The notes below the pieces were generated by a model. It had not been told where the DNA came from. It worked only from the letters and a program-made list of their open reading frames with translations, and searched no databases. Positions 13,591-63,390 of a stretch of 64,000 nucleotides of DNA are shown piece by piece (position 1 is the first letter of the stretch; every line of letters begins with the position of its first letter). This DNA is from Bacteroidaceae bacterium (lineage in GTDB: Bacteria > Bacteroidota > Bacteroidia > Bacteroidales > Bacteroidaceae). The stretch covers positions 2,467 to 66,466 of the forward strand of contig JBGVOS010000040.1 of the NCBI GenBank assembly GCA_045126595.1, given 5' to 3'. Made by a program: the position numbers and the translations under genes.

Positions 13591-13612
13591 AAAGCAAAGT
13601 TTTATTTAGCCA

Positions 13613-14728
13613 TCACGCCTCCTCCGAAGAGTTCGACATGAGGTATGCCTTGATGAAGCCATCAATCTTGCCGTCCATCACCCCACCTACATCCGAGGTC
13701 TGGTGTCCTGTGCGGTGGTCCTTCACGCGGCGGTCATCGAAAACGTAGCTGCGTATCTGCGAGCCCCACTCGATCTTTTTCTTTCCAGCCTCCACCTTGG
13801 CCTGCTCCTCCATACGGTGCTGCAGTTCGCGGTCATAGAGTTGTGAACGGAGCAGTCGCAAGGCGTTCTCCTTGTTCTTGGGTTGGTCACGGGTCTCGGT
13901 GTTTTCAATCATAATCTCCTCCTGCACACCGGTGTAGGGGTCGGTATATTGGTAGCGCAGACGCACGCCCGACTCCACCTTGTTCACGTTCTGACCACCG
14001 GCACCGCCGCTTCGGAATGTATCCCACGAGAGCAGGGCGGGGTTGATCTCAATTTCTATACTGTCATCGATGAGCGGTGTCACAAATACCGATGCAAATG
14101 AGGTCATGCGTTTGCCTTGGGCATTATAGGGAGATACGCGCACGAGGCGGTGCACACCGTTCTCGCTCTTCAGGTAACCATAGGCGAAGGGGCCTTCAAG
14201 CTCCATCGTCACGGTCTTGATGCCCGCCTCATCACCATCCTGCAGGGTAGAGATGCGGAGGTTGTAGCCATTGGTCTCGGCCCAGCGCATATACATACGC
14301 ATCAGCATTGATGCCCAATCCTGCGCTTCGGTACCACCGGCACCGGCATTGATCTTGAGCACGCAGTCCATATTGTCGGCCTCCTCGCGGAGCATATTCT
14401 TCAACTCCAGCTCCTCGATGGCCTCCAAGGCGGCAGCATAGGCTGCATCGAGTTCGGCTTCGGTGATGAGTTCATCCTTGCAGAACTCGAAGGCCACCTC
14501 CACCTCATCGGCAAGGCTCTTCACCTTCTTGTAGCCATCAATCCACGCCTGCAGCTCCTTCACCTTCTTCATCTGCGCCTCGGCCTTCTTGGCATCGTCC
14601 CAGAATCCAGGCACCTGCGTGCGCAACTGCTCTTCCTCTACCTGTATCTGCTTATCCTCAATGGCTAAATAGCGGTTCAGCGCCTCAGTGCGCTCTTTAA
14701 TATCTTTCAGTTGGTCTAATGTAATCAT
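13613..14728 (-). CDS. prfB: Peptide chain release factor 2
   Basis: Single uninterrupted 371-aa ORF with GGQ (SGGAGGQNVNKVES) and the RF2-type recognition loop, which here reads SPY. Confidence 0.93.
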   Translation of the reverse strand: MITLDQLKDIKERTEALNRYLAIEDKQIQVEEEQLRTQVPGFWDDAKKAEAQMKKVKELQAWIDGYKKVKSLADEVEVAFEFCKDELITEAELDAAYAAALEAIEELELKNMLREEADNMDCVLKINAGAGGTEAQDWASMLMRMYMRWAETNGYNLRISTLQDGDEAGIKTVTMELEGPFAYGYLKSENGVHRLVRVSPYNAQGKRMTSFASVFVTPLIDDSIEIEINPALLSWDTFRSGGAGGQNVNKVESGVRLRYQYTDPYTGVQEEIMIENTETRDQPKNKENALRLLRSQLYDRELQHRMEEQAKVEAGKKKIEWGSQIRSYVFDDRRVKDHRTGHQTSDVGGVMDGKIDGFIKAYLMSNSSEEA

Positions 14729-14749
14729 CTGTCTTTAAGTTTTAATGTA

Positions 14750-14757
14750 CAAAGGTA
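14750..14757 (-). promoter_or_regulatory. -7 promoter box upstream of prfB
   Basis: gtaCAAAGGTAgtg, 22 nt from the start. A TTTG (-33-like) lies about 20 nt further upstream. Confidence 0.5.
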
Positions 14758-15024
14758 GTGTAAGGCGAGAGAAATATCAAATTTCAACGAGTGAATATAA
14801 TGAAATAGTTAACTTTTTCCATTACTGAGCGAGGTAGAAATTCAACAGGGTTAAATTTATTTGAATATTTCCGTGCCACAGTCCAATTTCAAAGCTTGAC
14901 AATAAGCATTAAAGGTAATACAGCTGACACTTGAGCGAAAGTCAAACCTGTTTGTGTCTTTCAGTAAGCGAAAAGGAAGAAAATGAGGTTTAGTAAGACA
15001 ATCCTTCTGAGAAGGACAAGATAC

Positions 15025-38403: not shown

Positions 38404-40800
38404 TTATGCTTTACGCCACAACCCCCTACGTTTGCGTTTTTTGTTGTTCCCGTAGCCATAGCCATAACCGTAACCATAGCCGTAGCCATAGCCGTAGCCA
38501 TAGCCATAGCCGTATTTACGTTTACGTGGATCACCGCCATTGAGAATCAAGGCCATATTGTTCAGTTTCTTACTGTCATAGAGGTTTTGCAGGTCGGGCA
38601 GCTGACGCTTGTCAAGTTTGCCAATACGTACCACAAACATCGTCAAGTCAGCAATGCGATTGGCGATACTTGCATCGGCCACGATTCCCACAGGCACACT
38701 ATCAGCAATGATATAGTCGTATCGTTTGCGCAATTCAGCAAACAGCATCTCCAGTCGGTCGCTCATCAGCAGTTCAGCCGGGTTCGGAGCCACTGTACCC
38801 GCTTGCACGATATCCACGCGTTCACACACATGGTCCGGATGTATGAGTTCGTCTACCGTCAGTGTCGGGTCGGCAAGGTAATTGGTTACGCCCAATTTCC
38901 CTCTTCGTCCATGTCCCGTAAGCGTACCCTTACGCAAGTCGAGGTCCACCATGCACACCTTCTTGTTGGCAAATATCAAGCTCATCGCCAGATTACGGGT
39001 GATAAACGTTTTACCCGCACTCTCATTGAACGAGGTGAGCGTGATAACCTTCATCTTCGGGTCACCCTTAATCATAAAGGCCATGTTCGTACGCAAGATA
39101 CGGAACGCCTCCGAGAGCATGTCGGTACCCTCTTCCCGCACCACAATCGGTGTTTTGTGCTTCTTGTTGGCCTTCACCGTCTCGGTATCTACGGGAATCT
39201 CGCCCAAGAAAGGCATATTCACCTCATTCTCTATATCCTTATAATTATGTACGCGTGTGTCAAGGAAGAGTATCATGAGGAAGATAACCGCCGGTATGGC
39301 GATACCCACCAGGATACCCACCAGGATAATACGATTGCGCGAGGGGGCTATGGGCGACATGCTACCCTCGGCACTGTCGATAATCCACGCATTGTCATTC
39401 ACCATCGCCTGCGACAAGGCATTCTCTTCGCGTTTGTTGAGCAAGAACATGTACAGGCTCTCCTTGATCTTCTGCTGACGCTCGATAGAGAGCATCTGCT
39501 TCTGCTTGGTAGGTATGCTCTGCACGCGGGTTTGTGCCGCGTTCTCCCTTCTTTGCGCCTCATCCAGTCTCACATCCAGGCTCACGATCATATTGTCCAC
39601 CGCACTGATGATGCTCTGTCTCATCGCCTTCAACGAACCGTTCAACTCCTCCACGATAGGGTTGCGCTCGCTGCTCTCATCCAACAGCTTGTCGCGTTTC
39701 AGCTTCGTCGTGTTGTACTGCATGATCTGGCTCTCGATATTCATATCGCTGATGCCCGTGTTGGCCGGTATCAGGTCGGCGCTCTTCGAGTTATCCGTCA
39801 GGTACTCCTTGATGTATCGTGCCACCTGCAGTTGCGTCTTGGTCTCCATCACCTCTGAGCTGTACTTTTGCGACTCGCTCGAGTACTGTCCTGCCGCAGA
39901 GCTCAGGTCGATGATCTGGTTCTCCTTCTTGAAGCTGACGATTTCGTCCTCCACGCCACCAAGTTCCTTCTCAATCACCGCCAGACGTCCATTGATAAAG
40001 TCGGTGGTATTCTGCACCATCAGGTTCTTGTCGTCTACCGCCTGGTCGTTATACACCACCACCATGGTGTTCAAGATATTCTGTGCACGCAGTGCATTGT
40101 TATCCTTCAATGCCAACTTCAGGATAGAGCCCTCCTCAGACTCCTGACGGATACCGACAGCCGCTCTATAGCGGTCGGCCACCCATTCGAGGGGTATCTT
40201 CTCCACCTTTACAGCCTCGCCATACCACGACTCCCCATAGTGTGCCGTAGGTGCAATCACCACCTTCTGCCCATGCAGTGTAATGGTATCGTTCACCTTG
40301 AGGGTATACACTTGCGTATCCTCCGCTCCCGCCAGATGCGACACCTCGATGGTATTCTCATCGACCGGAGTGACGGTGAATGTAGCGTAGCTGTTCTGCA
40401 TCGCCTCGGGGAAGGCCACGCTGACAGGCGAGTTGGTATACAGTTCAATCCAGCGGAACTTAATCTTCGTCAGGTAGTTGACGTTCGCCTTGGTACGACG
40501 CACCGTCTCGCGCATCAACTTCTTGGAGCGGAACTGCAGGATCTCGTTCGTCACGTTCACCTTGTTCACCAAGTTGTCATAGCGGTCAAATCCAGCCGAA
40601 TAGGTATTCTTATTGGCGGGGTCCTTGATGATTACCGTAGCCGACTGGTAATAGGTAAACGGAGTATGCGCATACTTCAAGTAGGCATATCCTCCGCACA
40701 ACATCACCGACAACACAAACCACGGCCACTTCGAGAGAAGATAAAAGAACAGGTCCAAGATATTCAATCCCTGTTCCCTATTGTTGTTCGCCTTATTCAT
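38404..40800 (-). CDS. Polysaccharide co-polymerase / BY-type tyrosine autokinase (Wzc/GumC-like) with (YG)11 C-terminal tyrosine cluster
   Basis: 798-aa ORF with Wzz-type N-terminal TM and periplasmic coiled regions. It has Walker A SFNESAGKTF, Walker A'/B (VDLDLRKG, IIADSVP) and a C-terminal YGYG... tail followed by a basic tail. Confidence 0.9.
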   Translation of the reverse strand: MNKANNNREQGLNILDLFFYLLSKWPWFVLSVMLCGGYAYLKYAHTPFTYYQSATVIIKDPANKNTYSAGFDRYDNLVNKVNVTNEILQFRSKKLMRETVRRTKANVNYLTKIKFRWIELYTNSPVSVAFPEAMQNSYATFTVTPVDENTIEVSHLAGAEDTQVYTLKVNDTITLHGQKVVIAPTAHYGESWYGEAVKVEKIPLEWVADRYRAAVGIRQESEEGSILKLALKDNNALRAQNILNTMVVVYNDQAVDDKNLMVQNTTDFINGRLAVIEKELGGVEDEIVSFKKENQIIDLSSAAGQYSSESQKYSSEVMETKTQLQVARYIKEYLTDNSKSADLIPANTGISDMNIESQIMQYNTTKLKRDKLLDESSERNPIVEELNGSLKAMRQSIISAVDNMIVSLDVRLDEAQRRENAAQTRVQSIPTKQKQMLSIERQQKIKESLYMFLLNKREENALSQAMVNDNAWIIDSAEGSMSPIAPSRNRIILVGILVGIAIPAVIFLMILFLDTRVHNYKDIENEVNMPFLGEIPVDTETVKANKKHKTPIVVREEGTDMLSEAFRILRTNMAFMIKGDPKMKVITLTSFNESAGKTFITRNLAMSLIFANKKVCMVDLDLRKGTLTGHGRRGKLGVTNYLADPTLTVDELIHPDHVCERVDIVQAGTVAPNPAELLMSDRLEMLFAELRKRYDYIIADSVPVGIVADASIANRIADLTMFVVRIGKLDKRQLPDLQNLYDSKKLNNMALILNGGDPRKRKYGYGYGYGYGYGYGYGYGYGYGNNKKRKRRGLWRKA
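38449..38514 (-). repeat. Hexanucleotide microsatellite (GCCRTA)11 encoding (YG)11 of the tyrosine kinase tail
   Basis: Counted directly: cccgta gccata gccata accgta accata gccgta gccata gccgta gccata gccata gccgta. Confidence 0.9.
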
Positions 40801-41753: not shown

Positions 41754-41840
41754 GTGTTTTTTAGCGAAATATCTGTTTTTTATAGTAAAAAAGATGAAAG
41801 TTTAACATTGAATGATTAATGGTTAACGATTAACGAAGAC

Positions 41841-41905
41841 TCTAAACACTAAACACTAAACCCTAAACACTAAACACTAAACACTAAACACTAAACACTA
41901 AACCC
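41841..41905. repeat. Heptamer array (CTAAACA/CTAAACC)~9
   Basis: ctaaacactaaacactaaaccctaaacactaaacactaaacactaaacactaaacactaaaccc. It contains the stop codon and last codons of the HprK-like gene. Confidence 0.9.
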
Positions 41906-42760: not shown

Positions 42761-42816
42761 AGAAGGGATGAAGGGTTACAGGGGGAAGGGTTACGGGTTA
42801 CAGGGGGAAGGGAACT
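42761..42816. repeat. G-rich degenerate array (GAAGGGTTACRGG)
   Basis: agaagggatgaagggttacagggggaagggttacgggttacagggggaagggaac, immediately upstream of the HprK-like start codon. Confidence 0.8.
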
Positions 42817-42825
42817 TCCGCATTC

Positions 42826-43088
42826 GTGTCATCTCGAGAGCATCGAGAGATCTCGCAAAGTTCGTGTCAGTGAGTCCAAAGTAACTTTTGCAGCGAATGT
42901 AGCCGAACTAAATGCAAGGCACTAAAAGGAGTTGGTGTTTTCATAGCCCCAGCGCGGGAGAAGTGCTAAAGCACACTCCTCAGGGGAGATAAACCTCCCT
43001 TTGTCGTCAATGCGGAGCGCTCGGCTAGTCCGAGAACCGACGCTATCATACCGCGTCGGCGGTGCTCCGCTTTGTCGAGATGACAGAC
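42826..43088. repeat. Long (263-bp) member of the same family with terminal inverted repeats GTGTCATCTCGAG / TCGAGATGACAGAC and a structured insert
   Basis: The left end gtgtcatctcgagagcatcgagagatctcgcaaag is nearly identical to the left end of the copy at 60029. The right end is ctttgtcgagatgacagac. It lies between the HprK-like and NTase genes. Confidence 0.7.
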
Positions 43089-43108
43089 TGTCCCTTAATC
43101 CCATAACG

Positions 43109-43150
43109 CTACACACTAAACTCTAAACACTACACACTACACACTACACA
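43109..43150. repeat. Heptamer array (CTAAACT/CTACACA)
   Basis: ctacacactaaactctaaacactacacactacacactacaca. It overlaps the NTase stop codon. Confidence 0.85.
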
Positions 43151-44221: not shown

Positions 44222-44249
44222 CCGTTAACCGCTAACCGTTAACCGTTAG
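44222..44249. repeat. Heptamer array (CCGTTAA/CCGCTAA)x4
   Basis: ccgttaaccgctaaccgttaaccgttag. It encodes the PqqD C-terminus GLTVNG* on the minus strand. Confidence 0.85.
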
Positions 44250-44513: not shown

Positions 44514-44633
44514 GTGTGTAGGGTGTAGAGTGTAGGGTGTAGGGTGTAGAGTTTAGGGTGTAGAGTAGCTCCGCGATGTAATTCCTCCGGATAACAGCAC
44601 TAAACTCTAAACTTTAAACACTAAACTCTAAAC
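44514..44633. repeat. Inverted pair of heptamer half-arrays (GTGTAGG/GTTTAGG ... spacer ... CTAAACT)
   Basis: G-arm at 44514-44567, 30-nt spacer, C-arm at 44598-44633. It fills the gap between the GT4 stop and the PqqD start. Confidence 0.85.
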
Positions 44634-45733
44634 TTTTTATATATCTCCAATGCCCCCGCTATCATCCGTTCCTTGACGAAAAGCTTCTCGTAGCGCAGTC
44701 GTGCTCCCGTGGCATACACCTCGTAGGCATCGCGATCCTTGGTGATGGCCAGTATGGCCTCGGCTATCTCCTTGGCCTCTTCGGGCGTCACGTTGAGTCC
44801 CGATATGCCATGCTCGTTCACCCACGACGTGCCGCTCCCCGGTATGCGTGTCGCTATCACCGGCCTGCCACAGCTCATCGCCTCTATCTGTACGATGCCG
44901 AAGGCCTCGGTCTTCTGCACCGAGGAGAGCACAAACAATTCGCTCGCCGTGTAGTAGGCCGGCAGCTCCTCGTCCTTGACAAACCCGAGGAGCTTCACCT
45001 TCTCCTCCAGGTGCAGCTTCTCAATCAGCGCCTGATGCTCCTCTCTCAAGGGTCCCGTACCTCCTATCACGATCACATAGTCGTCGGGGAGGTATTGGGC
45101 TGCCTCTATCAAGTATTTATATCCTTTATAGTGCACCAGTCGTCCCAGCGAGAACACCATCTTACGTCCGCGATACACCTCGCGCAGCCGCTGTGCCCCC
45201 TCGATGTCGGCGGGCATCTCGTCCACGCCGATGGGCAGGTATGTCACCTTGTGCTGCACCTCGCGCAGGTCCTCCGACTCCTTCACGTAGATGGGCGTGG
45301 TTCCCACGATCAGGTCGGCACGGCGGATGAGCCACTTCTGGAACGGACGGTACAACTCCATCAACCGTTTCTGTCGTATGATATCGCTGTGCCAGTGCAA
45401 CACCACCTTACCGCGGTATCCCGAGAAGAAGAGCGCCATGCACGCCATCGGGTCGGGGTGATGCACATGGATGATGTCATACTTGTTACATATCCTCCAC
45501 AGCGTCGTTATCATCGACGGAGCGATCATTGTGCCTGCTACCTCCATCCAGGTGTGGCAGCACATCAGCTTCGCCCGTTCCCCTACCGTGAGGGTACTTC
45601 CCTTTCCCTTGACCGATGCACACAGCATATCACATTCTATGCCCTGCTTGTCGAGTCCTTCCATCAGGTCATACTCCACCTTCTCTACTCCACCCTTGAT
45701 GGGATAGAATTTACCTAATTGTAGTATTTTCAT
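44621..45733 (-). CDS. Glycosyltransferase family 4
   Basis: 370-aa ORF with a GT-B fold and the EAFGIVQIEAMSCGRPVIAT (E-X7-E) motif. Confidence 0.88.
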   Translation of the reverse strand: MKILQLGKFYPIKGGVEKVEYDLMEGLDKQGIECDMLCASVKGKGSTLTVGERAKLMCCHTWMEVAGTMIAPSMITTLWRICNKYDIIHVHHPDPMACMALFFSGYRGKVVLHWHSDIIRQKRLMELYRPFQKWLIRRADLIVGTTPIYVKESEDLREVQHKVTYLPIGVDEMPADIEGAQRLREVYRGRKMVFSLGRLVHYKGYKYLIEAAQYLPDDYVIVIGGTGPLREEHQALIEKLHLEEKVKLLGFVKDEELPAYYTASELFVLSSVQKTEAFGIVQIEAMSCGRPVIATRIPGSGTSWVNEHGISGLNVTPEEAKEIAEAILAITKDRDAYEVYATGARLRYEKLFVKERMIAGALEIYKKFRV

Positions 45734-45743
45734 TCTTGTAATG

Positions 45744-45837
45744 TTGAAGGGTTAAAGGTAAGAGGTTAAGGGTGAAGGGTGAATGAATAACCGCTAATCC
45801 GCTAACCGCTAACCACTAACCTGTAACCTTTAACCGT
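45744..45837. repeat. Inverted pair of half-arrays (GGTTAAG/GGTGAAG then CCGCTAA/CCTTTAA)
   Basis: gttgaagggttaaaggtaagaggttaagggtgaagggtgaatg | aataaccgctaatccgctaaccgctaaccactaacctgtaacctttaaccg. The outer ends (gggttaaaggt / acctttaaccg) are nearly complementary (10 of 11 positions). Confidence 0.85.
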
Positions 45838-47048
45838 TTATATAAATCCAGATACTCCGCATAGCGTTCCTCCTTCTTGAAGTGCGCCAGTGCGTAGTTG
45901 CGGCATCGTGATTGATAGTAATCCTTTCCTTTCGCTCTTATGGCGCGTGCAGCACGCAGCAATCCCTCCACATCGCCCTGTTCTACGATAATCCCCGTAT
46001 CGGGTGTTATCACCTCGATGCTACCTCCCGTGCGATAGGTCACCACAGGCGTACCGCAGGCTATGGCCTCCATGTTCACCGTGGGGTAGTTGTCCTGCCA
46101 TGTAGGGTTGATGAAGGCATCGGCAGCAGCATACAACTCGGCCAGTTGGCGTATGTTCTCCGTGCGTGCTATCGCCACGATACCCGGCGGCAACATCGCC
46201 TTCTGCTCCTCCTTGATGCCCACGAGCACGATTACCTCATCCTCGTTGAGCATGGGGGCCATGCGTATGAAATCGTCCAATCCCTTCTCTCTGCTCCAAA
46301 TGCTGGCGAGGCCCAGCAAGATATGCTTCCCTTGCAATCCATACTTCCCCTTTACCGCCTCCGTATCGTATATATTGAATACCTCCGTATCGATACCATT
46401 GTGTATCACCTCATAGTGATAGTCCTTCAGGAACGAGTGCTGCATCTCCTCTCTCATCCATTCCGAAACCGTAACAATGGTAAACAGTTCCTTGGGTATT
46501 GAAGTGAATGCCTCCCGTTTATCGCGGAAGTTCTGTCGCGAGCGGTCGATGAGATAACTTGTCGGGAACTCCCTCCTCTGTGGGCAATTGTGACATTCCT
46601 TCTTCCACTTGTCACACCCCGCAAATGAGTAGTGATAGCAATGTCCCGTATAGAGCCAGCAGTCATGCACCGTCCACACCACGGGGATACGCGCCTCGGC
46701 GAGGTATTCAAACAGTATCTTATAGTTCAGGAAATAGCCGTGTATATTATGTATATGGATGATATCGGGCTCTATGCGCTTGATCTCCTTGATAAATTCT
46801 CGTGTGGCACGGTTCGAGGCCAGGCCATGACGGTCGAGACAACGGGTCACCACCCCATGCCATACCGTGCTCCACCTGTTACCCACCGGGATAGCCTTCA
46901 CGTTGCATTCCCTCATGCCATCGCGTCCCTTGCTATAGGCGATATAGCACTCCCATCCGTGCTGTGTAGCCAGCTCCGCAATCTCCTGCATGATACGTCC
47001 CGTCGACGTGTTCTGCCTGATTACCGGATTGATCTGAAGTAATTTCAT
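45816..47048 (-). CDS. Glycosyltransferase family 4
   Basis: 410-aa ORF with the IIHIHNIHGYF N-domain and a C-domain ending ...NYPTVNMEAIACGTPVVTY. Confidence 0.85.
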   Translation of the reverse strand: MKLLQINPVIRQNTSTGRIMQEIAELATQHGWECYIAYSKGRDGMRECNVKAIPVGNRWSTVWHGVVTRCLDRHGLASNRATREFIKEIKRIEPDIIHIHNIHGYFLNYKILFEYLAEARIPVVWTVHDCWLYTGHCYHYSFAGCDKWKKECHNCPQRREFPTSYLIDRSRQNFRDKREAFTSIPKELFTIVTVSEWMREEMQHSFLKDYHYEVIHNGIDTEVFNIYDTEAVKGKYGLQGKHILLGLASIWSREKGLDDFIRMAPMLNEDEVIVLVGIKEEQKAMLPPGIVAIARTENIRQLAELYAAADAFINPTWQDNYPTVNMEAIACGTPVVTYRTGGSIEVITPDTGIIVEQGDVEGLLRAARAIRAKGKDYYQSRCRNYALAHFKKEERYAEYLDLYKRLKVTG

Positions 47049-47146
47049 TCTAGATAATACGAAGAGCAGTTACGCTGCACGAAGATAGCCGAAGGCTATA
47101 CGAAAGGCAGCTTGCTACACGAAAACAACTGAAGATGCACGAAGAC
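47049..47146. repeat. Array of ~20-nt units: short hairpin + (T)ACGAARA
   Basis: Examples: gcagttacgctgc-acgaaga, tagccgaaggcta-tacgaaa. It lies 3' of the four-helix-bundle gene. Confidence 0.85.
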
Positions 47147-47518
47147 TTATTGTTTCCTTAAGGTTCTAATCAATCGACTTAGTTGGCACTCGATAGAAAT
47201 AACCTTTGAGTTTAATACCCTATAGTTCTCGTCGTCAAGGTATCCTATTTCATGAGATATCAGCAGTTGTGTCTCTACTTCATAGGCCGACCCTAATGCG
47301 ATATCCAAGAAATGGGCAAATTCTGTATCCGATGGTCTTGAAGCCCCTTCAGCAATGTTGGATGGTATAGATACGGCTGCTCGTTGAAGTTGGTCGCATA
47401 TACCTTTTTTCTCAAACCAAGGCATCGCACTTGTTTGCTTATACATCGCGACAGATAGCATCACGGCATCATGCCACACTGGATACTCTTTAAAATTACG
47501 AGCTTTCTTTCCCTTCAT
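47147..47518 (-). CDS. Four-helix-bundle protein (23S rRNA intervening-sequence protein / Avd-like family)
   Basis: Starts at the ATG (cat at 47516-47518) giving MKGKKARNFKEYPVWHDAVMLSV..Y.... The motif QLQRAAVSIPSNIAEG and ...AYEVETQLLIS are the family signature. The ORF-track version begins at an upstream GTG. Confidence 0.85.
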   Translation of the reverse strand: MKGKKARNFKEYPVWHDAVMLSVAMYKQTSAMPWFEKKGICDQLQRAAVSIPSNIAEGASRPSDTEFAHFLDIALGSAYEVETQLLISHEIGYLDDENYRVLNSKVISIECQLSRLIRTLRKQ

Positions 47519-47715
47519 TCTTTCGTCATCGTGCACGCTTATGTGCTTTTGTTATATTTCGCAGTTGCAAGCGGCTTTCCCCTTATTATTTTCGTATAGC
47601 CTTTGCTGTCCTTCGTGGCGGCCTACCGCCCTTCGTACACACTTTGTGTGTTATCGTTCACGCTTGTGTACCATCGTGAAGCTATCTTCGTTTTCGTACA
47701 GCTATGCTGTTTTGG
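47519..47715. repeat. Array of ~20-nt units in the opposite orientation: TTCGT(A) + variable hairpin
   Basis: cttcgt-GGCGGcctaCCGCC, cttcgt-ACACACtttGTGTGT, ttcgt-ACAGCtatGCTGT, ttcgt-AGCCACtgcGTGGCT, TTCACG..CGTGAA. Confidence 0.88.
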
Positions 47716-48870
47716 TTATATTTCGTAGCCACTGCGTGGCTTTAACCGTTCAAATAAGGAAATCCACTTTTTCATCACCGCCTCCTCCGAGTAGGTATCT
47801 ACTACCTGGCGGGCATTCATGCCCATCTCTTGGCGGAGAGCCTCATCACTCATGAGCAGCATCATGGCATCGGCCAGTCCTGGGATATCGCCATTGGGTA
47901 CGATGAGGCCATTCTTTCCGTGGTCGATGATATCGCGCGGTCCACATTTGAAGTCGAAGGACACTACAGGCAGTCCACATGCCATGGCCTCTATCATCAC
48001 CATGGGGAATCCCTCGTAGTTGCTGCTCATCACGAGCATGCTGCTGCGCGTATACTCCTCTCCGATGTTCTTTGTCGGTGCATGGATGGCACAGGTTGCC
48101 GCTATGCCATAGTCCTTGATGCGCTGCTCGAGCATCTCTTGCCATTCTCCTTGGCCGTAGATGTCGAGGTGCCAGTCATGGTTTTGCTCCGTCTGTTGCA
48201 CTATGCGCCATGCCTCGATGAGGCGGTCGAAACCCTTCTGGTAGTCGAGACGCCCCACGGCAATCACCCGCTTGGCACGTCCATCGGCATAGCGGCTGCT
48301 CGTCATCATCGCCGCATTGGGTATCACCTCGATGTTGGGGATGTTGCCCCACATCTGGGCATCCTCTTCGGTGAGCACCACGAAGCGGTCGAACTTCCTC
48401 ACTAAACTCTCATCCATCTTCGCCCGCATCTTATCGGCCATTCCCATCAGCCCCGTACGGTTATATTGATGATGGAATAGTTTGCTCTGATGTAGCTCCA
48501 TCACCTTCTTGCTCCCATCCTTCAGGCTGGGCACGAAGGAGCATTCCCCTGGGTAGAAGCAGTCTACGATATCGGGCTTTATCTGGCTCAGCAATGCCCT
48601 CAGCCTTTTCTTGTGAAGTCGTCGCTTGCAAATATATCCGCAGAACTTTTTCAGGAACGGCTTCCCATTATCATCCGAGTAGTTGACATCCAAGTCCACC
48701 ATCTTCACCCCCTCGGGGAACGGATAGAACGGCACACGTCCATGCTGGTCGGTCGTCACCACGGTGATGTCCCAGTGCAACTGCTCCACCAGGTAACGCA
48801 CCTTATTGAGCAGTACCCTCTCCATCCCCCCAGGGTTATATATTGAGCAAATGCAGTATACAATCTTCAT
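47716..48870 (-). CDS. Glycosyltransferase family 4
   Basis: 384-aa ORF with the GGMERV N-terminal motif and the EGFPMVMIEAMACGLPVVSFD C-domain. Confidence 0.88.
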   Translation of the reverse strand: MKIVYCICSIYNPGGMERVLLNKVRYLVEQLHWDITVVTTDQHGRVPFYPFPEGVKMVDLDVNYSDDNGKPFLKKFCGYICKRRLHKKRLRALLSQIKPDIVDCFYPGECSFVPSLKDGSKKVMELHQSKLFHHQYNRTGLMGMADKMRAKMDESLVRKFDRFVVLTEEDAQMWGNIPNIEVIPNAAMMTSSRYADGRAKRVIAVGRLDYQKGFDRLIEAWRIVQQTEQNHDWHLDIYGQGEWQEMLEQRIKDYGIAATCAIHAPTKNIGEEYTRSSMLVMSSNYEGFPMVMIEAMACGLPVVSFDFKCGPRDIIDHGKNGLIVPNGDIPGLADAMMLLMSDEALRQEMGMNARQVVDTYSEEAVMKKWISLFERLKPRSGYEI

Positions 48871-49055
48871 ATTTTTTTATGATTTTTCGTATAGCAAGGC
48901 TATTTTCGTTACACGTCAGCGTGTATTTCGTACAACCATAGGTCGTTTTCGTGTTGGATGCGCTCTTCGTACAGCAAAGCAAGTTATCGTCTTCGTTTTT
49001 CGTTATCGTACACGCTTGCGTGTTTTCGTCAATCGTTAACCGCTAACCGTTTATC
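48871..49055. repeat. TTCGT(A)+hairpin array followed by CCGTTAA-type heptamers
   Basis: ttcgt-ATAGCaagGCTAT, ttcgtt-ACACGtcagCGTGT, ttcgt-ACAACCataGGTCGT, atcgt-ACACGCttGCGTGT, then aatcgttaaccgctaaccg, which encodes the Wzy C-terminus RLAVND*. Confidence 0.85.
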
Positions 49056-50336
49056 CGCCTCCTCATTCTCCTCCCTACTTATCAGCAGGAATGGGGCGAA
49101 TACGAGGAACACGTCGGTCGATACCTTAAACCAACCTGCCATATTTACAGCCAGGAAGAGTAGGAACAGCATGCTCTGTGCTGGGAATTTCTTCATGCAG
49201 CTTTGTGTTATAGCGATGAAGAAAGCTATGAAGGACATTAACCCGAAGATGCCAAAATAGAATATAAATCGAAGGTAGCCAACATCTGTGCCCATATAGT
49301 ATCCTCCAACTATTTCTCCTGTGTAATACGGATCATTCCTAGGACTCATCATATATCCATCACCTATCATCCAAGTCTTAAAGTTGTCTGGAAATACATA
49401 CATATCCATGAGAATGTTATTGGAGTGTACTTCCCACTTACCTTTTTCTGCCAAACTGAAGAAGCCTTCGAAGGCAAAGCGTGTGTTGGCACGGAAGTTC
49501 GGGTTGGTGTTATATAACGGTACGATGATGAACAGTGCTACCACTATGACTCCTACCAGCCAAGTCCACAGATACCTGTTCTCTTTTCCTGCAGTTTTGT
49601 TTTGCTTGAACAGCGAATATATCCAATACAGCAATGCCAAACCCACTCCTACCGTTGTTGTTCGGGCTATCATATTACCCACCAAGCCAATGATGACGAA
49701 GCATACAAGGTATATCCAGATATAGTTTTTTCGTGTGGTGCTGGCAATGCGACTGGTGATATAGGCAATGGCGCATAGCACGGTAGAGAAGCGTAGTCCG
49801 GCAACATCTAATCCTGCCCCAATACCATAGAGCCGATGTGATTTGTTCATCAAACTTGTATCCACAAATCCAAACCCTGACACATAGGTGTTAATGAATG
49901 CTTTAAAGGCAGGGATGGAATCCATCATCAGTGCTGATATGCATTGTGCCGTACATACCGCTATCAGGTAGTTGCATACCAATTCTACAGATATATAGCC
50001 GTGCAACGCCCGCATAAAGGTTACTACCACATAGGCACCGCTGAGCCATACCCACATACTCACGATGTAGGTGGCATAGGTGTAGTCGCGCGTTTCATTA
50101 TAGGTAACAGCAATCAGCCCAATAAAAGAGACTAAGACAGCAATGAGAGAATACCTAAAAATAGCACTGTCCACATAGGGTTTTCTCTGCTGTGCCAATC
50201 GAACAATGAGTATCACCAACCCGAATCCGGCCATAGCCATCTTGGTATTGACACCAGGGAGAAAGGTAAACTCAATGGGAAAGAAATAAAAACTGACCAT
50301 CACTCCCATCAGGATGGTCATTAGGAATTTTATCAT
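49029..50336 (-). CDS. Wzy-type O-antigen/capsule polymerase-like polytopic membrane protein
   Basis: 435-aa ORF with about 10-11 TM helices and one large hydrophilic loop (residues ~290-345). Position among the GTs supports the call. AT-rich. Confidence 0.6.
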   Translation of the reverse strand: MIKFLMTILMGVMVSFYFFPIEFTFLPGVNTKMAMAGFGLVILIVRLAQQRKPYVDSAIFRYSLIAVLVSFIGLIAVTYNETRDYTYATYIVSMWVWLSGAYVVVTFMRALHGYISVELVCNYLIAVCTAQCISALMMDSIPAFKAFINTYVSGFGFVDTSLMNKSHRLYGIGAGLDVAGLRFSTVLCAIAYITSRIASTTRKNYIWIYLVCFVIIGLVGNMIARTTTVGVGLALLYWIYSLFKQNKTAGKENRYLWTWLVGVIVVALFIIVPLYNTNPNFRANTRFAFEGFFSLAEKGKWEVHSNNILMDMYVFPDNFKTWMIGDGYMMSPRNDPYYTGEIVGGYYMGTDVGYLRFIFYFGIFGLMSFIAFFIAITQSCMKKFPAQSMLFLLFLAVNMAGWFKVSTDVFLVFAPFLLISREENEEADKRLAVND

Positions 50337-56498: not shown

Positions 56499-56732
56499 GA
56501 TTATAATGATGAACGAAAACACGCTTGCGTGTGATTAACGGTGAGCGGTGAGTGGTTAAAGGTTAAGGGGACAGCTTTGCTGTCGGGGTTAGGGGTTATG
56601 GGTAAGTAGTTAGTGGAGTCGCTGGTGCGAACGAAGACAGCTCCGCTGTACGAAGATATAATAAACGAAGATAACCGGAGGCTGTACGAAAACGGGAACA
56701 CGCGGAGCGGGTGATTTACGGTTAACGGAATA
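56499..56732. repeat. Mixed array (GGTGAGC/GGTTAAG heptamers, then hairpin+ACGAAGA units)
   Basis: gattaacggtgagcggtgagtggttaaaggttaagggg...acgaagaCAGCtccGCTGtacgaagatataataaacgaaga.... It separates the GT2 gene from darG. Confidence 0.85.
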
Positions 56733-57800
56733 TCAAATCATTTTATTCTGATTCAGATGATCAACAATCAATGAGATGTATTTGCTACCAGTGTAAATGC
56801 GTTGTTTGCGAGAGTTCCATGCAGATATATTATCGTTAATATACTCAATAAAAGAAACTTTATCTGAAATATCACAACGCGAGGCTGATTGCTCTTCGTT
56901 CAATATGTAATCAACCGTTGACAATAACTCCAACGAGTAGTTGGAATAATATCCACGCAGAAAGTCTTTCGTACGATTGGCAATATCACGATACGTCTTG
57001 TTCTCTGGTGATTCGAGGTACGATGTGATATACTGGGCTGTGTCATCAAGCAGCCAGAGGGCATCGAACGGCTTGTTCTGCATCCCTACCATCCCCTTGA
57101 TATAACTGCCGTTAAGATAATAGAGTACATGGGCAATCTTACCACCTGAATATGGGCCATAATATCCGCGAGTAAACTCAATCTTGAATATGTCTTTTGC
57201 TCCAAGACGTTGAAGGAAATATACAATCTTCTCCGCCGCAAAAACTGAAATAAACTCACCATACGACACCATATCGCATAACACATCAAGGAGCATTGCA
57301 CGAGCAGGAGTCAACTTTACGCGTTCTTCCTTCATCTTCTCCACAATAGCCATAGAAGGTTCATATATACGGATATCGCAGTCAAGATCACCCAGTGAAT
57401 CGATAATCATCTTTTTTACACGAGACCAGTCAAGGCCTCCATTATGAGAGCCAAGAGGGGGGATAGCTATGGAACGTATACCTAATTCCTGTATCTTGCT
57501 TCTCAAAGCGATAAGTCCTGATTCTATATATGCATATTCTGATGGTTTGCGCCAAGTGGTCTTGGTCGGGAAATTGATGATCAGTTTATCCCCATCAAGG
57601 CGCTTGTTCTCTGTGATGAGAAGCTGGCCTACGGTCAACATACCCTCTTTACAGGCTCTGCGATAGATGCTATAGTTCTCCGGAAAACGCTCCTTGAACT
57701 GCAACGCAATACCCTTACCCATAACCCCTACAGTATTCACCGTATTTACCAAGGCTTGGGCATCATCCATGAGCAAATCGCCTTTTATATAGGTAATCAT
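56733..57800 (-). CDS. darG: DarG-type macrodomain antitoxin (ADP-ribosyl-DNA glycohydrolase + C-terminal DarT-binding domain)
   Basis: The N-terminal macrodomain is ITYIKGDLL...ALVNTVNTVGVMGKGIALQFKERFP...IAIPPLGSHNGGL. It lies 2 nt downstream of darT. Confidence 0.85.
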   Translation of the reverse strand: MITYIKGDLLMDDAQALVNTVNTVGVMGKGIALQFKERFPENYSIYRRACKEGMLTVGQLLITENKRLDGDKLIINFPTKTTWRKPSEYAYIESGLIALRSKIQELGIRSIAIPPLGSHNGGLDWSRVKKMIIDSLGDLDCDIRIYEPSMAIVEKMKEERVKLTPARAMLLDVLCDMVSYGEFISVFAAEKIVYFLQRLGAKDIFKIEFTRGYYGPYSGGKIAHVLYYLNGSYIKGMVGMQNKPFDALWLLDDTAQYITSYLESPENKTYRDIANRTKDFLRGYYSNYSLELLSTVDYILNEEQSASRCDISDKVSFIEYINDNISAWNSRKQRIYTGSKYISLIVDHLNQNKMI

Positions 57801-57802
57801 AA

Positions 57803-58414
57803 TCAGTAATAATAATCTGAGTTAACAACAATTAGATTAACATCGATACCATAATGAATCAACCTTTGTTTAGCCAGTTCATTATAGACAACATATCCAC
57901 AGATATAGTTTGGCGAAAGCGCGTTCCTAATCAACAATTCTGCCTCTTTACGTCGTTTAAGGTCTGTATCTGTTTCGCTAATCCAATACTTTGCGTAAAC
58001 CTCATCATAAGAAACGATACTGTTTATCTCAGTAAGCTTGTCGTGTGTATAGAAATCCGTGAGTGCACTTAACGCATGCCCATCAGTAAAAAGACATTCA
58101 ACATTATCAGCTATCAACTCTTCTATTTTTATCACACAATATACTATGTCTTCTGGATTCTGCTTTTCCACCCCATTATATCCATGCTGAATAACATATA
58201 GCATCACCGAACGTGGACCAAAATAAAATGGAATATACTGCGCCAAATCATACCCCTTTATCTTCGTAGCCCTTTTCCCTATAACCTCTCTGTCACCTAT
58301 AGACTTATAGGTAGAACTAGCAAATTCTGAGCCAGGAAGCACAAAACCCGTTTCACTGATATAAGGGATATTATCAATGTGGGTGATTCTGAATCCGTAA
58401 CGTATTTTATTCAC
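57803..58414 (-). CDS. darT: DarT (DUF4433) ssDNA ADP-ribosyltransferase toxin
   Basis: FRITHIDNIPYI, YIPFYFGPRSVMLYVI, FTDGHA and RRKEAELLI align motif-for-motif with characterised DarT (YHITHIDNL / VPFYFCPRSPMLYAI / FTDRHA / KKQAEFLV) as I recall it. Confidence 0.88.
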   Translation of the reverse strand: MNKIRYGFRITHIDNIPYISETGFVLPGSEFASSTYKSIGDREVIGKRATKIKGYDLAQYIPFYFGPRSVMLYVIQHGYNGVEKQNPEDIVYCVIKIEELIADNVECLFTDGHALSALTDFYTHDKLTEINSIVSYDEVYAKYWISETDTDLKRRKEAELLIRNALSPNYICGYVVYNELAKQRLIHYGIDVNLIVVNSDYYY

Positions 58415-58496
58415 TACGGTTAAGGGTGTGGTAGTTAAGGATGAGCACTGAAAGGACAGCCGGAGTCTGGGATTAACGTGTAAATGATTAATGCTC
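58415..58496. repeat. Short array-type spacer (GGTTAAG-like) between darT and the DUF3791 gene
   Basis: cggttaagggtgtggtagttaaggatgagc ... gattaacgtgtaaatgattaatg. Confidence 0.6.
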
Positions 58497-58715
58497 TCAA
58501 CCCATAACGCCGGTCAATAATTCGTGCTCAAGGAACGAATATACATATTTCGGACTCTGATAATACAAACCTGTGTTCTTGTCGCGAAGTTTTATGTAGG
58601 TGTCCGAGGTATATACCGTATCTATGGCCTCTTGAAAGGATAGATTTCTCTTTTCCATAAGTAGCGTGGTCAATTCCGCTGCTATGTACTCTACCATATA
58701 TTCTATGTCGTTCAT
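58497..58715 (-). CDS. DUF3791-like small protein
   Basis: 72-aa ORF overlapping the upstream gene by 4 nt (ATGA). It is the partner type that usually accompanies DUF3990. The family assignment is from memory. Confidence 0.6.
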   Translation of the reverse strand: MNDIEYMVEYIAAELTTLLMEKRNLSFQEAIDTVYTSDTYIKLRDKNTGLYYQSPKYVYSFLEHELLTGVMG

Positions 58716-59185
58716 AGTTTAGATAAGTGTGAAATGGATCTCTCTGTTCCGAAAAAGTACTGAAAGGTTATACCCTTGAAGTATTTTATCCGATGAAGGA
58801 ACTCTCCCATGTCTATGCTCCCTTCTGTCAACTTCTGCATTTGGAGTCCAATCTTGTCGTTGGCTATCGGACCGTATATCACATCATACTCATCTTGCAA
58901 AAATTCGGATTCTTCTCTGTTTTTGAATACAAATTTTGCCCATTCTTCTGAATATGAATCAAAGGATAGGTATCGCAATGTGCCATCCGATAGTTTGCGT
59001 TCGTCAAAACTGAATGAAGTGACTATAGGAGTGCCACCCAATGCCATGGTACGTAGGGAAGCCATTTGCTCGGCCTGCTGTAAATCGGCAGACAGGTAAA
59101 AACCTCTTCCAAAATCCTTGAAAGGTTTTGATTTTAGCAACTCTATATTGTTTATTTCAACGTTGCTGCCATGATAAAGTATCAT
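58712..59185 (-). CDS. DUF3990-like protein with PARP-like H-Y-E motifs (candidate ADP-ribosyltransferase fold)
   Basis: 157-aa ORF with LYHGS (res 3-7), GRGFYLSAD (26-34) and DEYDVIYG (98-105). It has 4-nt overlaps with both neighbours. Confidence 0.65.
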   Translation of the reverse strand: MILYHGSNVEINNIELLKSKPFKDFGRGFYLSADLQQAEQMASLRTMALGGTPIVTSFSFDERKLSDGTLRYLSFDSYSEEWAKFVFKNREESEFLQDEYDVIYGPIANDKIGLQMQKLTEGSIDMGEFLHRIKYFKGITFQYFFGTERSISHLSKL

Positions 59186-59409
59186 ACGATGCCTCCTCCT
59201 TGACGTTTCATATAATTGACTAGCATATCCATCGCATCAGAAAAACTAAGAGTATGCATGATGTCATAATGCTTGTCTACCATATCTACTCCTCCATAAC
59301 GCTTCACATAGCGATATGACTGTAGTACGTTCAAATTATGCCACTTGGCGAAGTGTGATATGAGTGACATCAGATATTCTGCCTTGTCTCTAATTATAGA
59401 TCTTTCCAT
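59182..59409 (-). CDS. DUF3791-like small protein
   Basis: 75-aa ORF containing ...YDIMHTLSFSDAMDMLVNYMKRQGG. It is the first gene of a translationally coupled three-gene operon. Confidence 0.6.
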   Translation of the reverse strand: MERSIIRDKAEYLMSLISHFAKWHNLNVLQSYRYVKRYGGVDMVDKHYDIMHTLSFSDAMDMLVNYMKRQGGGIV

Positions 59410-59470
59410 ACGATATTTATATTCATAGGCAAAGTAACAAATAATTTAGTTGACCTCCTATGCTTTTAAC

Positions 59471-59854
59471 CATTTTTGAGGATACGATTAACGAGTAACG
59501 AAGACAGCTGCGCTATACGATGATATAATAAACGAAGATAGCCGGAGGTTGTACGAAGAGCGACAAGCGCTACGAAAATAGCCTTTGGCTATACGAAAAT
59601 ACTAAACAGTACGATGGGTTATTGTTTTCTTAGGGTTCTTATCAATCGGCTTAGCTGACACTCTATAGAGGTGACAGACGAATTTAAGGCTTCATAGCCT
59701 TCGTACTGCCTCGGCAGTATTTGTTATCGTTATTATTGCTTTTCGTGCATCGTGCGCGCTTTGCGTGCCTTCGTACAGCTTTAGCTGTCTTTGTAGCGGA
59801 TCACCGCTCTTCGTGCACTCCGTGCCTTCGTTGTCACTTTGCTCGCAAAGTGAC
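59471..59854. repeat. ACGAAGA-array | four-helix-bundle gene remnant | TTCGT-array, ending in a 10-bp perfect hairpin
   Basis: The left part contains ...aacgaagacagctgcgctatacgatgatataataaacgaaga...TAGCCtttGGCTAtacgaaaa. The right part contains cttcgt-ACTGCCtcGGCAGT, cttcgt-ACAGCTttAGCTGT, cttcgt-GCACtccGTGC and GTCACTTTGCtcGCAAAGTGAC. Confidence 0.85.
59619..59675 (-). pseudogene. 3'-terminal remnant of a second four-helix-bundle (Avd-like) gene
   Basis: ttattgttttcttagggttcttatcaatcggcttagctgacactctataga matches ttattgtttccttaaggttctaatcaatcgacttagttggcactcgataga at 47147-47197, roughly 85% identity by eye. It would encode ...SIECQLSRLIRTLRKQ*. The rest of the ORF is missing. Confidence 0.7.
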
Positions 59855-60028
59855 ATACCTCTGGGGCTTAGACTAATTCATAATCGCATAAGAATCAGCC
59901 TATTAGATAGCAACAGCGTGTTAATTTCTCTATGCATAAGAGAAGTTTGGTGTAAAGATACGTGTTTATATTTGATTTTCATACTTTTTAACGATTTATT
60001 TTGAGGGGAAGGGTGAGCAGCCGCGTTC

Positions 60029-60158
60029 GTGTCATCTCGAGCGAATGCGAGAGATCTCGTAAAGTCTCTTGAAATATAATCTCCAGTCCCAGCGTGAGAT
60101 CCTTGACTTCAGCCCCTTCGGGCGTCGACCTAAAGGTTCACTTCGTTCAGGATGACAC
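60029..60158. repeat. REP/MITE-like palindromic element (130 bp)
   Basis: gtgtcatctcgagcgaatgcgagagatctcgtaaag ... gtcccagcgtgagatcc ... cacttcgttcaggatgacac. The internal gtcccagcg.gagatcc segment is shared with the copy at 34578. Confidence 0.75.
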
Positions 60159-60174
60159 GGAGAGCCCCTACCTC

Positions 60175-60236
60175 CTTAACCCTTCACCTTTTAACCCTTA
60201 ACCTTTAACCCTTCACCTTTAACCCTTAACCCTTTC
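60175..60236. repeat. C-orientation GGTTAAG/GGTGAAG-type array
   Basis: cttaacccttcaccttttaacccttaacctttaacccttcacctttaacccttaaccctttc, abutting the VirE-like stop codon. Confidence 0.85.
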
Positions 60237-62457: not shown

Positions 62458-62768
62458 GGTTAGGGTTTAGGGTTTAGGGTTTAGAGTTTAGTGTTTAGGG
62501 TGTAGGGTTTAGGGTGTAGGGTGTAGGGTGTAGAGTGTAGAGTTTAGTGTTTAGGGTGTAGGGTGTAGGGTTTAGGGTTTAGGGTGTAGAGTTTAGAGTT
62601 TAGGGTTTAGTGTTTAGAGGTTAGGGGGTAGGGTTTAGAGGTTAGGGTTTAGTGTTTAGGGTTTAGAGTTTAGTGTTTAGGGTGTAGGGTGTAGGGTTTA
62701 GGGGTTAGTGTTTAGGGGTTAGGGTTTAGGGACCGTTAACCGTTAACCGCTCACCGCTCACCGTTAAT
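62458..62768. repeat. ~270-bp degenerate heptamer array (TTTAGGG/TGTAGGG/TTTAGAG/TTTAGTG, roughly 40 units) followed by CCGTTAA/CCGCTCA heptamers
   Basis: Read directly from the sequence. It begins 4 nt upstream of the VirE-like start codon. It includes runs such as GGGtgtaGGGtttaGGGtgtaGGGtgtaGGG. Confidence 0.92.
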
Positions 62769-62881: not shown

Positions 62882-63143
62882 ATGAAACTTACTCATCCCT
62901 GCCCGCTGGGCACCTTTATCGTAGGGGAGCGCATGGCGCTCGGCTGCCCTGTCAAGACCTTCTGCCGCGAATGTGGTATCACCGTGAAGACCTATTACCG
63001 TCTGTTGGGGGGAAAAAGCTACGCTCACGAGCTATGCTAAGGTAATAGACTACCTATACTATGCCCACCAACCGGACGAACGGGCCAACTTTGCCATGGC
63101 ATTCGTGAGGGCTTTCATGCCACTGCGCCACGGCTGCCACTAA
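62882..63143 (+). pseudogene. Small HTH-like gene interrupted by a frameshift in a G6A5 homopolymer tract
   Basis: The frame from the ATG at 62882 gives MKLTHPCPLGTFIVGERMALGCPVKTFCRECGITVKTYYRLLGGKSYAHELC* (stop at 63038). The +1 frame continues from the tract at 63007-63017 as ...GEKATLTSYAKVIDYLYYAHQPDERANFAMAFVRAFMPLRHGCH* (stop at 63141). One fewer G fuses them. A TAtaTTTG box sits at 62828-62835. Confidence 0.45.
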
Positions 63144-63284: not shown

Positions 63285-63390
63285 CCCTACACCCTAACCC
63301 CTAAACACTACACACTAAACCCTACACACTAAACCCTAAACCCTAAACACTAAACTCTAAACCCTAAACTCTAAACACTACACGCTAAAC
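63285..63390. repeat. Heptamer array in the opposite (CCCTAAA/CACTAAA/CACTACA) orientation
   Basis: cctacaccctaacccctaaacactacacactaaaccctacacactaaaccctaaaccctaaacactaaactctaaaccctaaactctaaacactacacgctaaac. It is inverted relative to 62458-62731. Confidence 0.9.

Follow-up and report, generated by a model that had tools for sequence, protein, structure and literature searches.

A four-helix-bundle gene between inverted arrays of short repeats at an operon junction of a Bacteroidaceae bacterium: a probable cassette of the kind seen in 23S rRNA intervening sequences

The window, that is, the whole stretch of 64,000 nucleotides analysed here (contig JBGVOS010000040.1 of assembly GCA_045126595.1, from a Bacteroidaceae bacterium), has a G+C content of about 49% and from about 38 to 60 kb carries a polysaccharide-synthesis operon on the minus strand, with GT4, GT2, Wzy-like, NTP_transf_5, PqqD and Poly_export genes. 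The subject of this work is a small gene for a four-helix-bundle (4HB) protein in this operon, together with the two noncoding arrays that frame it, in which a constant pentamer is followed by a variable hairpin. Gene and arrays are called cassette A, and the arrays its arms; DarT/DarG and VapE-like genes are also found in the neighbourhood. The parts of cassette A and its flanking genes are the following:

45816-47048, minus strand: downstream flanking gene, a GT4 glycosyltransferase of 410 aa by Pfam, used as the query in the search for empty sites
47049-47146, minus strand: operon-downstream arm, five ACGAA units (plus strand), stopping about 10 nt short of the downstream GT4 start codon (ATG)
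47147-47518, minus strand: 4HB gene, the cargo of cassette A, 123 aa, with PF05635, TIGR02436 and 2GSC matches
47519-47745, minus strand: operon-upstream arm, about eight units, TTCGT-hairpin on the plus strand and hence hairpin-ACGAA on the operon strand
47716-48870, minus strand: upstream flanking gene, a GT4 glycosyltransferase of 384 aa (Pfam Glycos_transf_1, E 3.4e-42)

The two arms are inverted relative to each other, as the original prediction, made from the letters alone, had held, because on the plus strand only ACGAA occurs on the left (47059, 47079, 47100, 47119 and 47139, with no TTCGT) and only TTCGT on the right (47522, 47591, 47612, 47632, 47687, 47693 and 47722, with no ACGAA). 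Aligned unit by unit against the reverse complement of the left arm, the right arm shows homology in mirror order (alignment score 64); the left arm is the inverted homolog of the inner 115 nt or so of the right arm, which extends outwards by four further units. The right array had been placed at 47519-47715. It is real, and its end lies at about 47745, where the final 7-8 codons of the upstream GT4 open reading frame (ORF), with the stop, are provided by the array's outermost unit. The C-terminus of this protein reads ...WISLFERLKPRSGYEI, and that of the homolog at an empty site (L068) ...WISLFTALTDK. The pattern TTCGT-N9-20-TTCGT has 19 matches in the window versus 1.03 ± 0.94 in shuffles, and 17 of the 19 fall in the five arrays first named. 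This excess speaks against chance low-complexity sequence or an assembly artefact, to which we assign a negligible probability: contigs with 4HB genes are indeed often short, and repeats break assemblies, but independent assemblies of many samples contain the same arrays and the layout is conserved across phyla.

The units measure about 20 nt and combine the constant pentamer with variable short hairpins, and the hairpins originally given as examples were all recovered (GGCGG/CCGCC, ACACAC/GTGTGT, ACAGC/GCTGT and AGCCAC/GTGGCT). Their stems begin immediately 3' of TTCGT. Hairpins of at least 5 bp occur at 7% of random positions. The window and related loci have 114 distinct spacers of 10-24 nt between TTCGT motifs; stems of at least 4 bp are formed by 54% of them versus 18% of shuffles, and stems of at least 5 bp by 33% versus 7%. 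A compensatory variant is seen in AGCCAC...GTGGCT versus AACCAC...GTGGTT. In the minimum-energy structure predicted for the RNA of the whole cassette, the arms pair around the ORF (-204.5 kcal/mol, z -3.9). Rfam at gathering thresholds returned no match in the whole window, neither rRNA nor any other family; the arrays therefore do not belong to a curated RNA family. Two other candidates were rejected. A CRISPR array does not agree with a constant part of 5-7 nt and with "spacers" of 1-16 nt that are self-complementary; an intrinsic terminator or attenuator does not agree with the absence of terminator-like sites on the operon (minus) strand in 46900-49200, the opposite strand having 2 where 2.1 are expected.

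The predicted 4HB gene at 47147-47518 on the minus strand was borne out by the profile matches of its product: PF05635 (E 3.3e-32, 111.3 bits, cut-off 33.8), which is the sole Pfam match of the 123-aa protein, and TIGR02436 (E 4.4e-32, 110.5 bits, cut-off 24). Residues 8-122 match the structure of XCC0516 (PDB 2GSC, E 3.5e-20), a homology that points to a four-helix-bundle fold for the window protein. The gene is under strong purifying selection (dN/dS 0.04-0.15 against relatives), and one search returned 6,925 relatives of the protein. A defence-system reading found no support, as PADLOC gave no match, and neither did a phage origin, with 0 relatives in 2.9 million viral contigs.

The family of the protein had also been said to include Avd, the basic, nucleic-acid-binding accessory protein of diversity-generating retroelements. 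Avd is highly basic and acts together with a reverse transcriptase and a template RNA; the window protein is not basic but near neutral, with an isoelectric point (pI) of 7.8, and the family has a median of 5.9. PF05635 is indeed the Pfam family of Avd too (PMC10053308), and Avd forms a pentameric four-helix-bundle ring (PMC4990558 for XCC0516). At the window locus there is no pair of template and variable repeats; glycosyltransferase genes stand on both sides, and no reverse transcriptase is present among the genes examined from 40.9 to 62.5 kb, in line with what had been noted for the window. Nor is a reverse transcriptase needed for the layout in any of the 44 genome loci described below, none having been seen in their cassettes. 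That cassette A is a remnant or an Avd accessory of such a retroelement is thus very improbable; it was set aside on the missing adjacent reverse transcriptase, the missing repeat pair and the pI, and the analogy with Avd is weak.

Evidence that arms and gene belong together comes from loci where both are missing. In 80 metagenome loci, largely from human-gut assemblies, that carry a homolog of the downstream GT4 protein at 67-71% amino-acid identity, a 4HB gene within 4 kb was found in none (0/80). At these loci the two GT4 homologs abut or overlap, through the junctions TAAATG, ATGATG, TAATG and ATGA, with no arrays between them, and the upstream GT4 proteins of the window and of the empty sites align to their ends, up to the array. 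Short tandem arrays number 0.10 per 10 kb in the empty-site loci (682 kb), 2.66 in the window and 3.57 in 4HB loci. Arms and gene therefore constitute one insertion, because homologous operons lack both and have abutting GT4 genes. Arms and gene are present or absent together, and the outer edges of the insert are formed by the arms, which adjoin the neighbours' stop and start codons directly. A comparison of orthologous loci for the presence or absence of the gene-array unit had been proposed from the outset; the 80 homologous loci that lack both represent a different lineage at about 68% amino-acid identity.

Further arrays of the same unit type in the window are the following:

59465-59621: arm of cassette B, hairpin-ACGAA units (plus strand), ACGAA at 59498, 59532, 59553, 59572 and 59593
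59622-59702, minus strand: remnant of a 4HB gene, residues 97-123 (the C-terminus, 27 aa), tblastn 81% identity, E 1.7e-9
59678-59854: arm of cassette B, TTCGT-hairpin units (plus strand), TTCGT at 59700, 59742, 59770, 59810 and 59827
48871-49028, minus strand: gene-less array of eight TTCGT units, between the Wzy-like gene (49029-50336) and the upstream GT4 gene (47716-48870)
56620-56732, minus strand: gene-less array of four ACGAA units (plus strand), which directly repeats part of an arm of cassette B

Three regions (48871-49028, 56620-56732 and 59471-59854) had been listed originally as filled by these units. All three contain them, and the last is more than an array. It lacks the first 290 nt or so of the 4HB gene, its arms are mirror-homologous (alignment score 53), and 59588-59669 is 80% identical to 47114-47197 of cassette A; judged from its sequence, 59465-59854 is a second, gene-truncated copy of the cassette with both arms. 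The junction occupied by the array at 48871-49028 varies among relatives, measuring 16-26 nt in L058, L059 and L062 and about 70 nt in L050, with arrays of 159-274 nt in L047, L049 and L051 and a full foldback of 290 nt in L061. Within the other gene-less array, 56630-56690 is 92% identical over 61 nt to 59497-59557, as a direct repeat of the ACGAA-hairpin array. These two repeats bracket 56733-59409, a module at the head of the operon that consists of DUF3791, DUF3990, a 72-aa ORF, DarT and DarG (macro), which suggests that arrays serve as recombination junctions for the import of gene modules.

The same layout recurs in other genomes. A scan of one genome per species gave 44 loci and, with extra paralogs, 52-54 4HB genes. 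The upstream flank scores at least 30 against the reverse complement of the downstream flank in 63% of 54 4HB genes, versus 1.9% of 474 long ORFs and 0.4% of random segments, and this score is reached by 44% of the pairs formed by a gene's own arms and by 2.8% of cross-locus pairs. When short-period arrays are detected without reference to any motif, 81 of the 270 are found no more than 150 nt from a 4HB ORF, a zone that makes up 2.2% of the sequence (p 2e-66), and 45 of 52 4HB genes have such an array within 150 nt. TTCGT/ACGAA clusters are 13-fold enriched near 4HB ORFs. The neighbours are mostly co-oriented (upstream 35/38, downstream 29/34). In 18 cassettes the median distance of the outer arm edges is 3.5 nt to the upstream stop and 10 nt to the downstream ATG, and that of the complementary segments to the 4HB gene itself is 46 and 36 nt; these segments are thus placed at the outer ends of the insert. 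Cassettes of the compact form measure about 430-450 nt, and each of their arms about 28 nt. Arms most often have 4-5 repeat copies, a value that is near the score threshold of Tandem Repeats Finder and carries little weight; it fits a pentamer as well as an RNase III stem of about 28 bp. Cassettes elsewhere are found at type I restriction/YhcG-like, ABC transporter and lipid A acyltransferase genes and between convergent genes. Arms of 6-8-nt tandem repeats occur in several groups, with motifs such as these:

Bacteroidales: ACGAAA, TAACCC, TAACGT/TGACCT, GACACT, AAACGC
Terriglobia: GTCCGAR
Verrucomicrobiota (metagenome-assembled genome): GACGGAA
Chthoniobacterales: GGGAATG/GGTAATA

Across these genomes the arm motif tracks the clade of the 4HB protein in the tree, not the genome. 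The proportion of pairs that share a repeated arm 5-mer falls with protein identity:

Pairs from different genomes, protein identity at least 75%: 31%
Pairs from different genomes, protein identity 55-75%: 18%
Pairs from different genomes, protein identity 40-55%: 2%
Pairs from different genomes, protein identity below 40%: 0.8%
Different clades within one genome: 0 of 25

Between the window and other members of the ACGAA clade, dS ranges from 1.8 to more than 2.5, that is, synonymous sites are saturated. ACGAA is nevertheless kept in every context of this clade that was examined, among them a position behind a PDDEXK_3 gene and one between convergent genes. As ACGAA is retained despite this saturation, the pentamer appears to be under sequence constraint, with the spacers free. 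Selection had been thought at first to act on structure rather than on sequence. The hairpin enrichment and the compensatory variants agree with this in part; the strongest constraint is nonetheless on the sequence of the pentamer, kept at dS above 2.5, and the arrays bear no signature of the RNA strand.

The number and spacing of the units are far more fluid. In the arms of the ACGAA clade the pentamers are spaced by 1 nt (hexamer arrays), by 4-5 nt or by 12-16 nt, the last being the small hairpins of the window type. In L047-L054, loci whose 4HB proteins are of 81-86% identity, the upstream arm, 150-200 nt upstream of the 4HB start, is built of ACGAA plus 4-5 nt (agata/ggaa/atata/agga/aaag), and it ranges from 4 to 13 copies between samples of otherwise near-identical loci; this copy number could serve as a strain marker. 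In loci with 81-86% identical proteins the region downstream of the 4HB gene can contain a nested gene-less foldback, which has long and short alleles. Gene-less arrays share their motifs with the 4HB cassettes of the same locus. Clade-specific motifs under constraint are thus combined with a fast change of array copy number, which leaves gene-less or gene-truncated foldbacks such as 59465-59854.

An unlikely alternative is that the arrays are independent, host-level intergenic repeats, comparable with repetitive extragenic palindromes (REP) and bacterial interspersed mosaic elements, with the short tandem repeats known as STRR sequences in cyanobacteria, or with heptamers of the TAACTGA type, and that the 4HB gene is a separate small element that lands centrally in inverted arrays. 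It would account for the 189 of 270 arrays that are not adjacent to a 4HB gene, for gene-less arrays present or absent at one junction among related strains and for some heptamer array at nearly every junction of the window operon; heptamer arrays upstream of start codons have also been published with no link to 4HB genes (PMC4679880). It does not account for an arm motif that goes with the protein clade from genome to genome and is not the same in the paralogs of one genome, nor for the near absence of arrays from homologous operons that have no 4HB genes. The position of the arms, outermost in the insert on either side, and the retention of both arms by the truncated copy likewise count against it.

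Regulation of the polysaccharide operon by the arrays, through mRNA stability, translation initiation or coupling, or a copy-number switch, with the 4HB protein as a trans-acting RNA-binding regulator that is neither mobile nor selfish, was judged improbable. On the sense strand the upstream arms are rich in A (37%) and run up to start codons, the copy number differs from 4 to 13 between strains, the 4HB gene is under strong purifying selection, and MacGregor has proposed a translational role for similar heptamers (PMC4679880). The same cassette, however, is found in the unrelated contexts listed above, homologous operons function with no cassette, and the sense strand has neither terminator-like sites nor a G:U bias.

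The closest known relatives of cassette A are the S23p-encoding intervening sequences (IVS) of 23S rRNA in Coxiella burnetii and Leptospira (PMC4990558). The Coxiella IVS measures 428-444 nt and contains an S23p ORF and a 28-bp terminal stem that is cut by RNase III, so that inverted-repeat stems around S23p ORFs were already published (PMC4990558). Both kinds of element share a PF05635/TIGR02436 protein, a compact size of about 430-450 nt and an ORF within terminal inverted repeats of about 28 bp, and both sit where the host RNA tolerates a looped-out segment, are sporadically distributed and, in the case of the IVS, have been proposed to be selfish (PMC4990558). Cassette A has the IVS layout, a 4HB ORF within terminal inverted repeats capable of forming a stem, and differs in its location, which is between glycosyltransferase genes and not in helix 25 or 45 of 23S rRNA. 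More generally, the cassettes occupy stop/start junctions of protein-coding operons instead of an rRNA helix, and their arms are clade-specific arrays of 5-8-nt repeats, hypervariable in length and with gene-less derivatives. The Coxiella IVS ORF is decaying, whereas the window 4HB gene is under strong purifying selection. Other published settings of 4HB genes are rRNA insertions of candidate phyla radiation bacteria and positions wedged between cas genes (PMC3936711).

Comparisons with other repeats are more distant. The TAACTGA heptamers of Beggiatoaceae, Cyanobacteria and Bacteroidetes form intergenic tandem arrays (PMC4679880) and, as here, are short 7-nt arrays that end near a start codon or overlap the upstream stop, with a patchy phylogeny and absence from the same junction in close relatives. 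They are direct repeats with no gene and no inverted partner, unlike the inverted pairs with clade-tracking motifs around a 4HB gene or remnant. REP sequences with their REP-associated tyrosine transposases (RAYT), the REPIN-RAYT system, share a gene flanked by its own inverted short repeats, many gene-less intergenic copies and a clade-specific repeat family (PMC3116915). This resemblance, with inverted repeats that also occur gene-less elsewhere, is one of layout only. RAYTs are IS200/IS605-like Y1 transposases of known chemistry; in cassette A the sole Pfam match is PF05635, a protein with no known catalytic activity. REP hairpins are also conserved in sequence within a genome, whereas here the pentamer alone is constant and the hairpins vary. 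In Foldback/Galileo of Drosophila (PMC3573991) the terminal inverted repeats are likewise built of short tandem repeats, with unequal, variable arms and many noncoding copies; those elements are eukaryotic, of kilobase scale and endowed with a P-superfamily transposase, so that the analogy is one of layout, with no homology. Some arrays resemble integron attC core sites (GTTRRRY) and Bacteroides invertase sites, a comparison that did not fit the ACGAA arrays. In the literature searched, whose coverage is incomplete so that a prior description is possible, no description of repeat arms around non-rRNA 4HB genes was found. The earlier statement that such arrays are undescribed thus needs correction for IVS stems (PMC4990558) and heptamer arrays (PMC4679880), and stands for the link between arrays and 4HB genes.

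Taken together, mirror-homologous arms, homologous operons lacking both arms and gene, a truncated second copy and a layout with clade-specific motif that recurs across genomes and phyla uphold the proposal that gene and arrays form one unit with the arrays as terminal inverted repeats. We consider it probable, with some reserve, that 47049 to about 47745 is a compact selfish cassette, inserted as one element at an operon junction and of a kind with the S23p-encoding IVS of 23S rRNA. Such a cassette would sit exactly at the stop/start junction of two formerly coupled GT4 genes and be co-transcribed with them. Its arms would pair in the polycistronic RNA or in extruded single-stranded DNA and loop the cassette out, as the anatomy of the insert, the predicted RNA fold and the rRNA precedent suggest. 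A stem formed by arms that directly adjoin the neighbours' stop and start would re-juxtapose the cistrons and give a substrate for a double-strand-specific RNase as in rRNA IVS. The insertion might be tolerated thanks to this pairing and looping-out, and the re-juxtaposed cistrons could preserve the coupling seen at empty sites. The ring-forming 4HB protein may recognise the repeat of its own clade, which would explain both the conservation of the motif and the abundance of arrays only where 4HB genes occur; motif constraint and clade specificity would be most simply explained if the protein bound the repeat of its own cassette. As the cassette encodes no recombinase, its spread would depend on a host function acting in trans.

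Several observations weigh against this interpretation. The arms of cassette A are unequal, 98 versus about 225 nt, and two metagenome contigs (L001 and L002) with an identical 4HB protein and the same context lack 47553-47649, four inner units of one arm, and keep the gene. The empty sites belong to another lineage; loss instead of gain is compatible with them, and polarity follows from parsimony. About 70% of the short tandem arrays in 4HB-bearing loci are not beside a 4HB gene. The window protein has neither a basic charge nor a known enzymatic motif nor a PADLOC match. Mismatches between the arms comprise 32 that are G:U-compatible versus 35 A:C and 99 transversions, and those within the local hairpins 13 G:U versus 18 A:C, with no RNA-strand signature and no sense-strand excess of G:U. 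Since both tests were negative, RNA structure is not claimed over DNA palindromy, and the mismatches could not support such a preference; palindromes can be maintained by template switching at the DNA level too. Finally, no identical protein was found in two unrelated contexts. The exact-match contigs of the window protein and of P0003, P0011, P0064 and P0044 have one context each, and recent transposition was not caught because every exact-match protein keeps a single context. The nearest case of a change of context is P0002 versus P0003, at two different junctions of polysaccharide loci (L047 versus L055, dN 0.043, dS 0.66).

Two loci of other assemblies show cassettes in unusual company. 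In L007 (CADALO010000007.1), 3500-15000 holds seven 4HB genes of at least four clades in 11 kb, parted almost only by tandem arrays, and at least four motif types are present, each matching its 4HB clade elsewhere. Two YhcG/DUF1016-like ORFs of this locus stop at ...NWSRI, just short of an ACGAA-armed cassette. Beyond one of these ORFs, as in L040, the reading continues with the extreme C-terminus (...GVATYNNIRIKDMLPTQEQL...); the central nuclease domain seems to have given way to the cassette. In L148 (2042-2413, and in L149-L157) a 123-aa PDDEXK_3 (PF13366) gene lies directly upstream of an ACGAA-armed 4HB gene. Copies of ccacggatcta(c/t)cggatccacacggata stand on either side of the PDDEXK_3 gene, which may represent a second type of small cargo flanked by repeats, here a putative nuclease.

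Other repeats are plentiful in the window itself. Heptamer arrays stand at nearly every junction of the operon (41802-41903, 43105-43150, 44222-44248, 44516-44634, 45745-45836, 56585-56603 and 60174-60234), with the units TTAACGA, CTAAACA, AACACTA, CCGTTAA, GTGTAGG/CTAAACT, TGAAGGG/TAACCGC and CCTTAAC. Two of these arrays are inverted pairs 4-36 nt apart, that is, gene-less foldbacks. The junction heptamers match arms of other 4HB clades elsewhere (GAGTTTA/GAGTGTA; TAACCC/TAACGN), and the matching 4HB gene is absent from the window. At 62460-62767 there is a 272-nt array of about 39 TTAGGGT heptamers, and at 63285-63390 an inverted array of about 15 CCCTAAA; TTTAGGG is the unit of plant telomeres. 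The two arrays bracket about 520 nt with a small plus-strand ORF (about 62883-63040, 52 aa), upstream of the VapE-like gene and beside a DUF4248 gene: the same layout with another cargo. The noncoding cores at 42804-42861 and 60005-60065 are 84% identical over 61 nt (...gagatctctcg...ctcgagatgacacgaa...), and each is flanked by heptamer arrays. They contain no 4HB remnant by tblastn and no Rfam match at gathering thresholds, and may be another family of repeat-flanked noncoding elements or a small RNA. A search by tblastn for decayed 4HB genes in the cores at 42.7-43.2, 59.85-60.26 and 56.5-56.74 kb gave no significant match. An array of 9.8 copies of TAGCCA at 38453-38511 lies inside the 3' end of a 798-aa ORF (38404-40800, minus strand), where it codes for a C-terminal tail rich in Gly and Tyr; the same is seen in L008, upstream of the cassette there. 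Being coding, the TAGCCA array falls outside the phenomenon of intergenic arrays.

No function is known for PF05635/TIGR02436, a very large family; how the 4HB-carrying intervening sequences of rRNA arose and what they are for has been open for some 30 years (PMC4990558), and the short intergenic tandem repeats of several phyla are equally unexplained (PMC4679880). The comparative pattern links the orphan 4HB family, the rRNA IVS and the short tandem repeats in one testable model. In practice, the cassettes break metagenome assemblies and mark recombination-prone junctions in the capsule and O-antigen loci of gut and rumen Bacteroidales. A wider and distinctly tentative proposal is that PF05635 genes are the protein part of a widespread, hitherto undescribed class of bacterial mobile elements, in which the ring would recognise a clade-specific repeat of 5-8 nt, inverted arrays would be the ends, and gene-less arrays would be non-autonomous and dependent on the protein in trans. 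If true, this would cover the intergenic hexamer and heptamer repeats of Bacteroidota, possibly those of Cyanobacteria and Beggiatoaceae, and would provide a single explanation for rRNA intervening sequences, STRR-like repeats and a large family with no assigned function.

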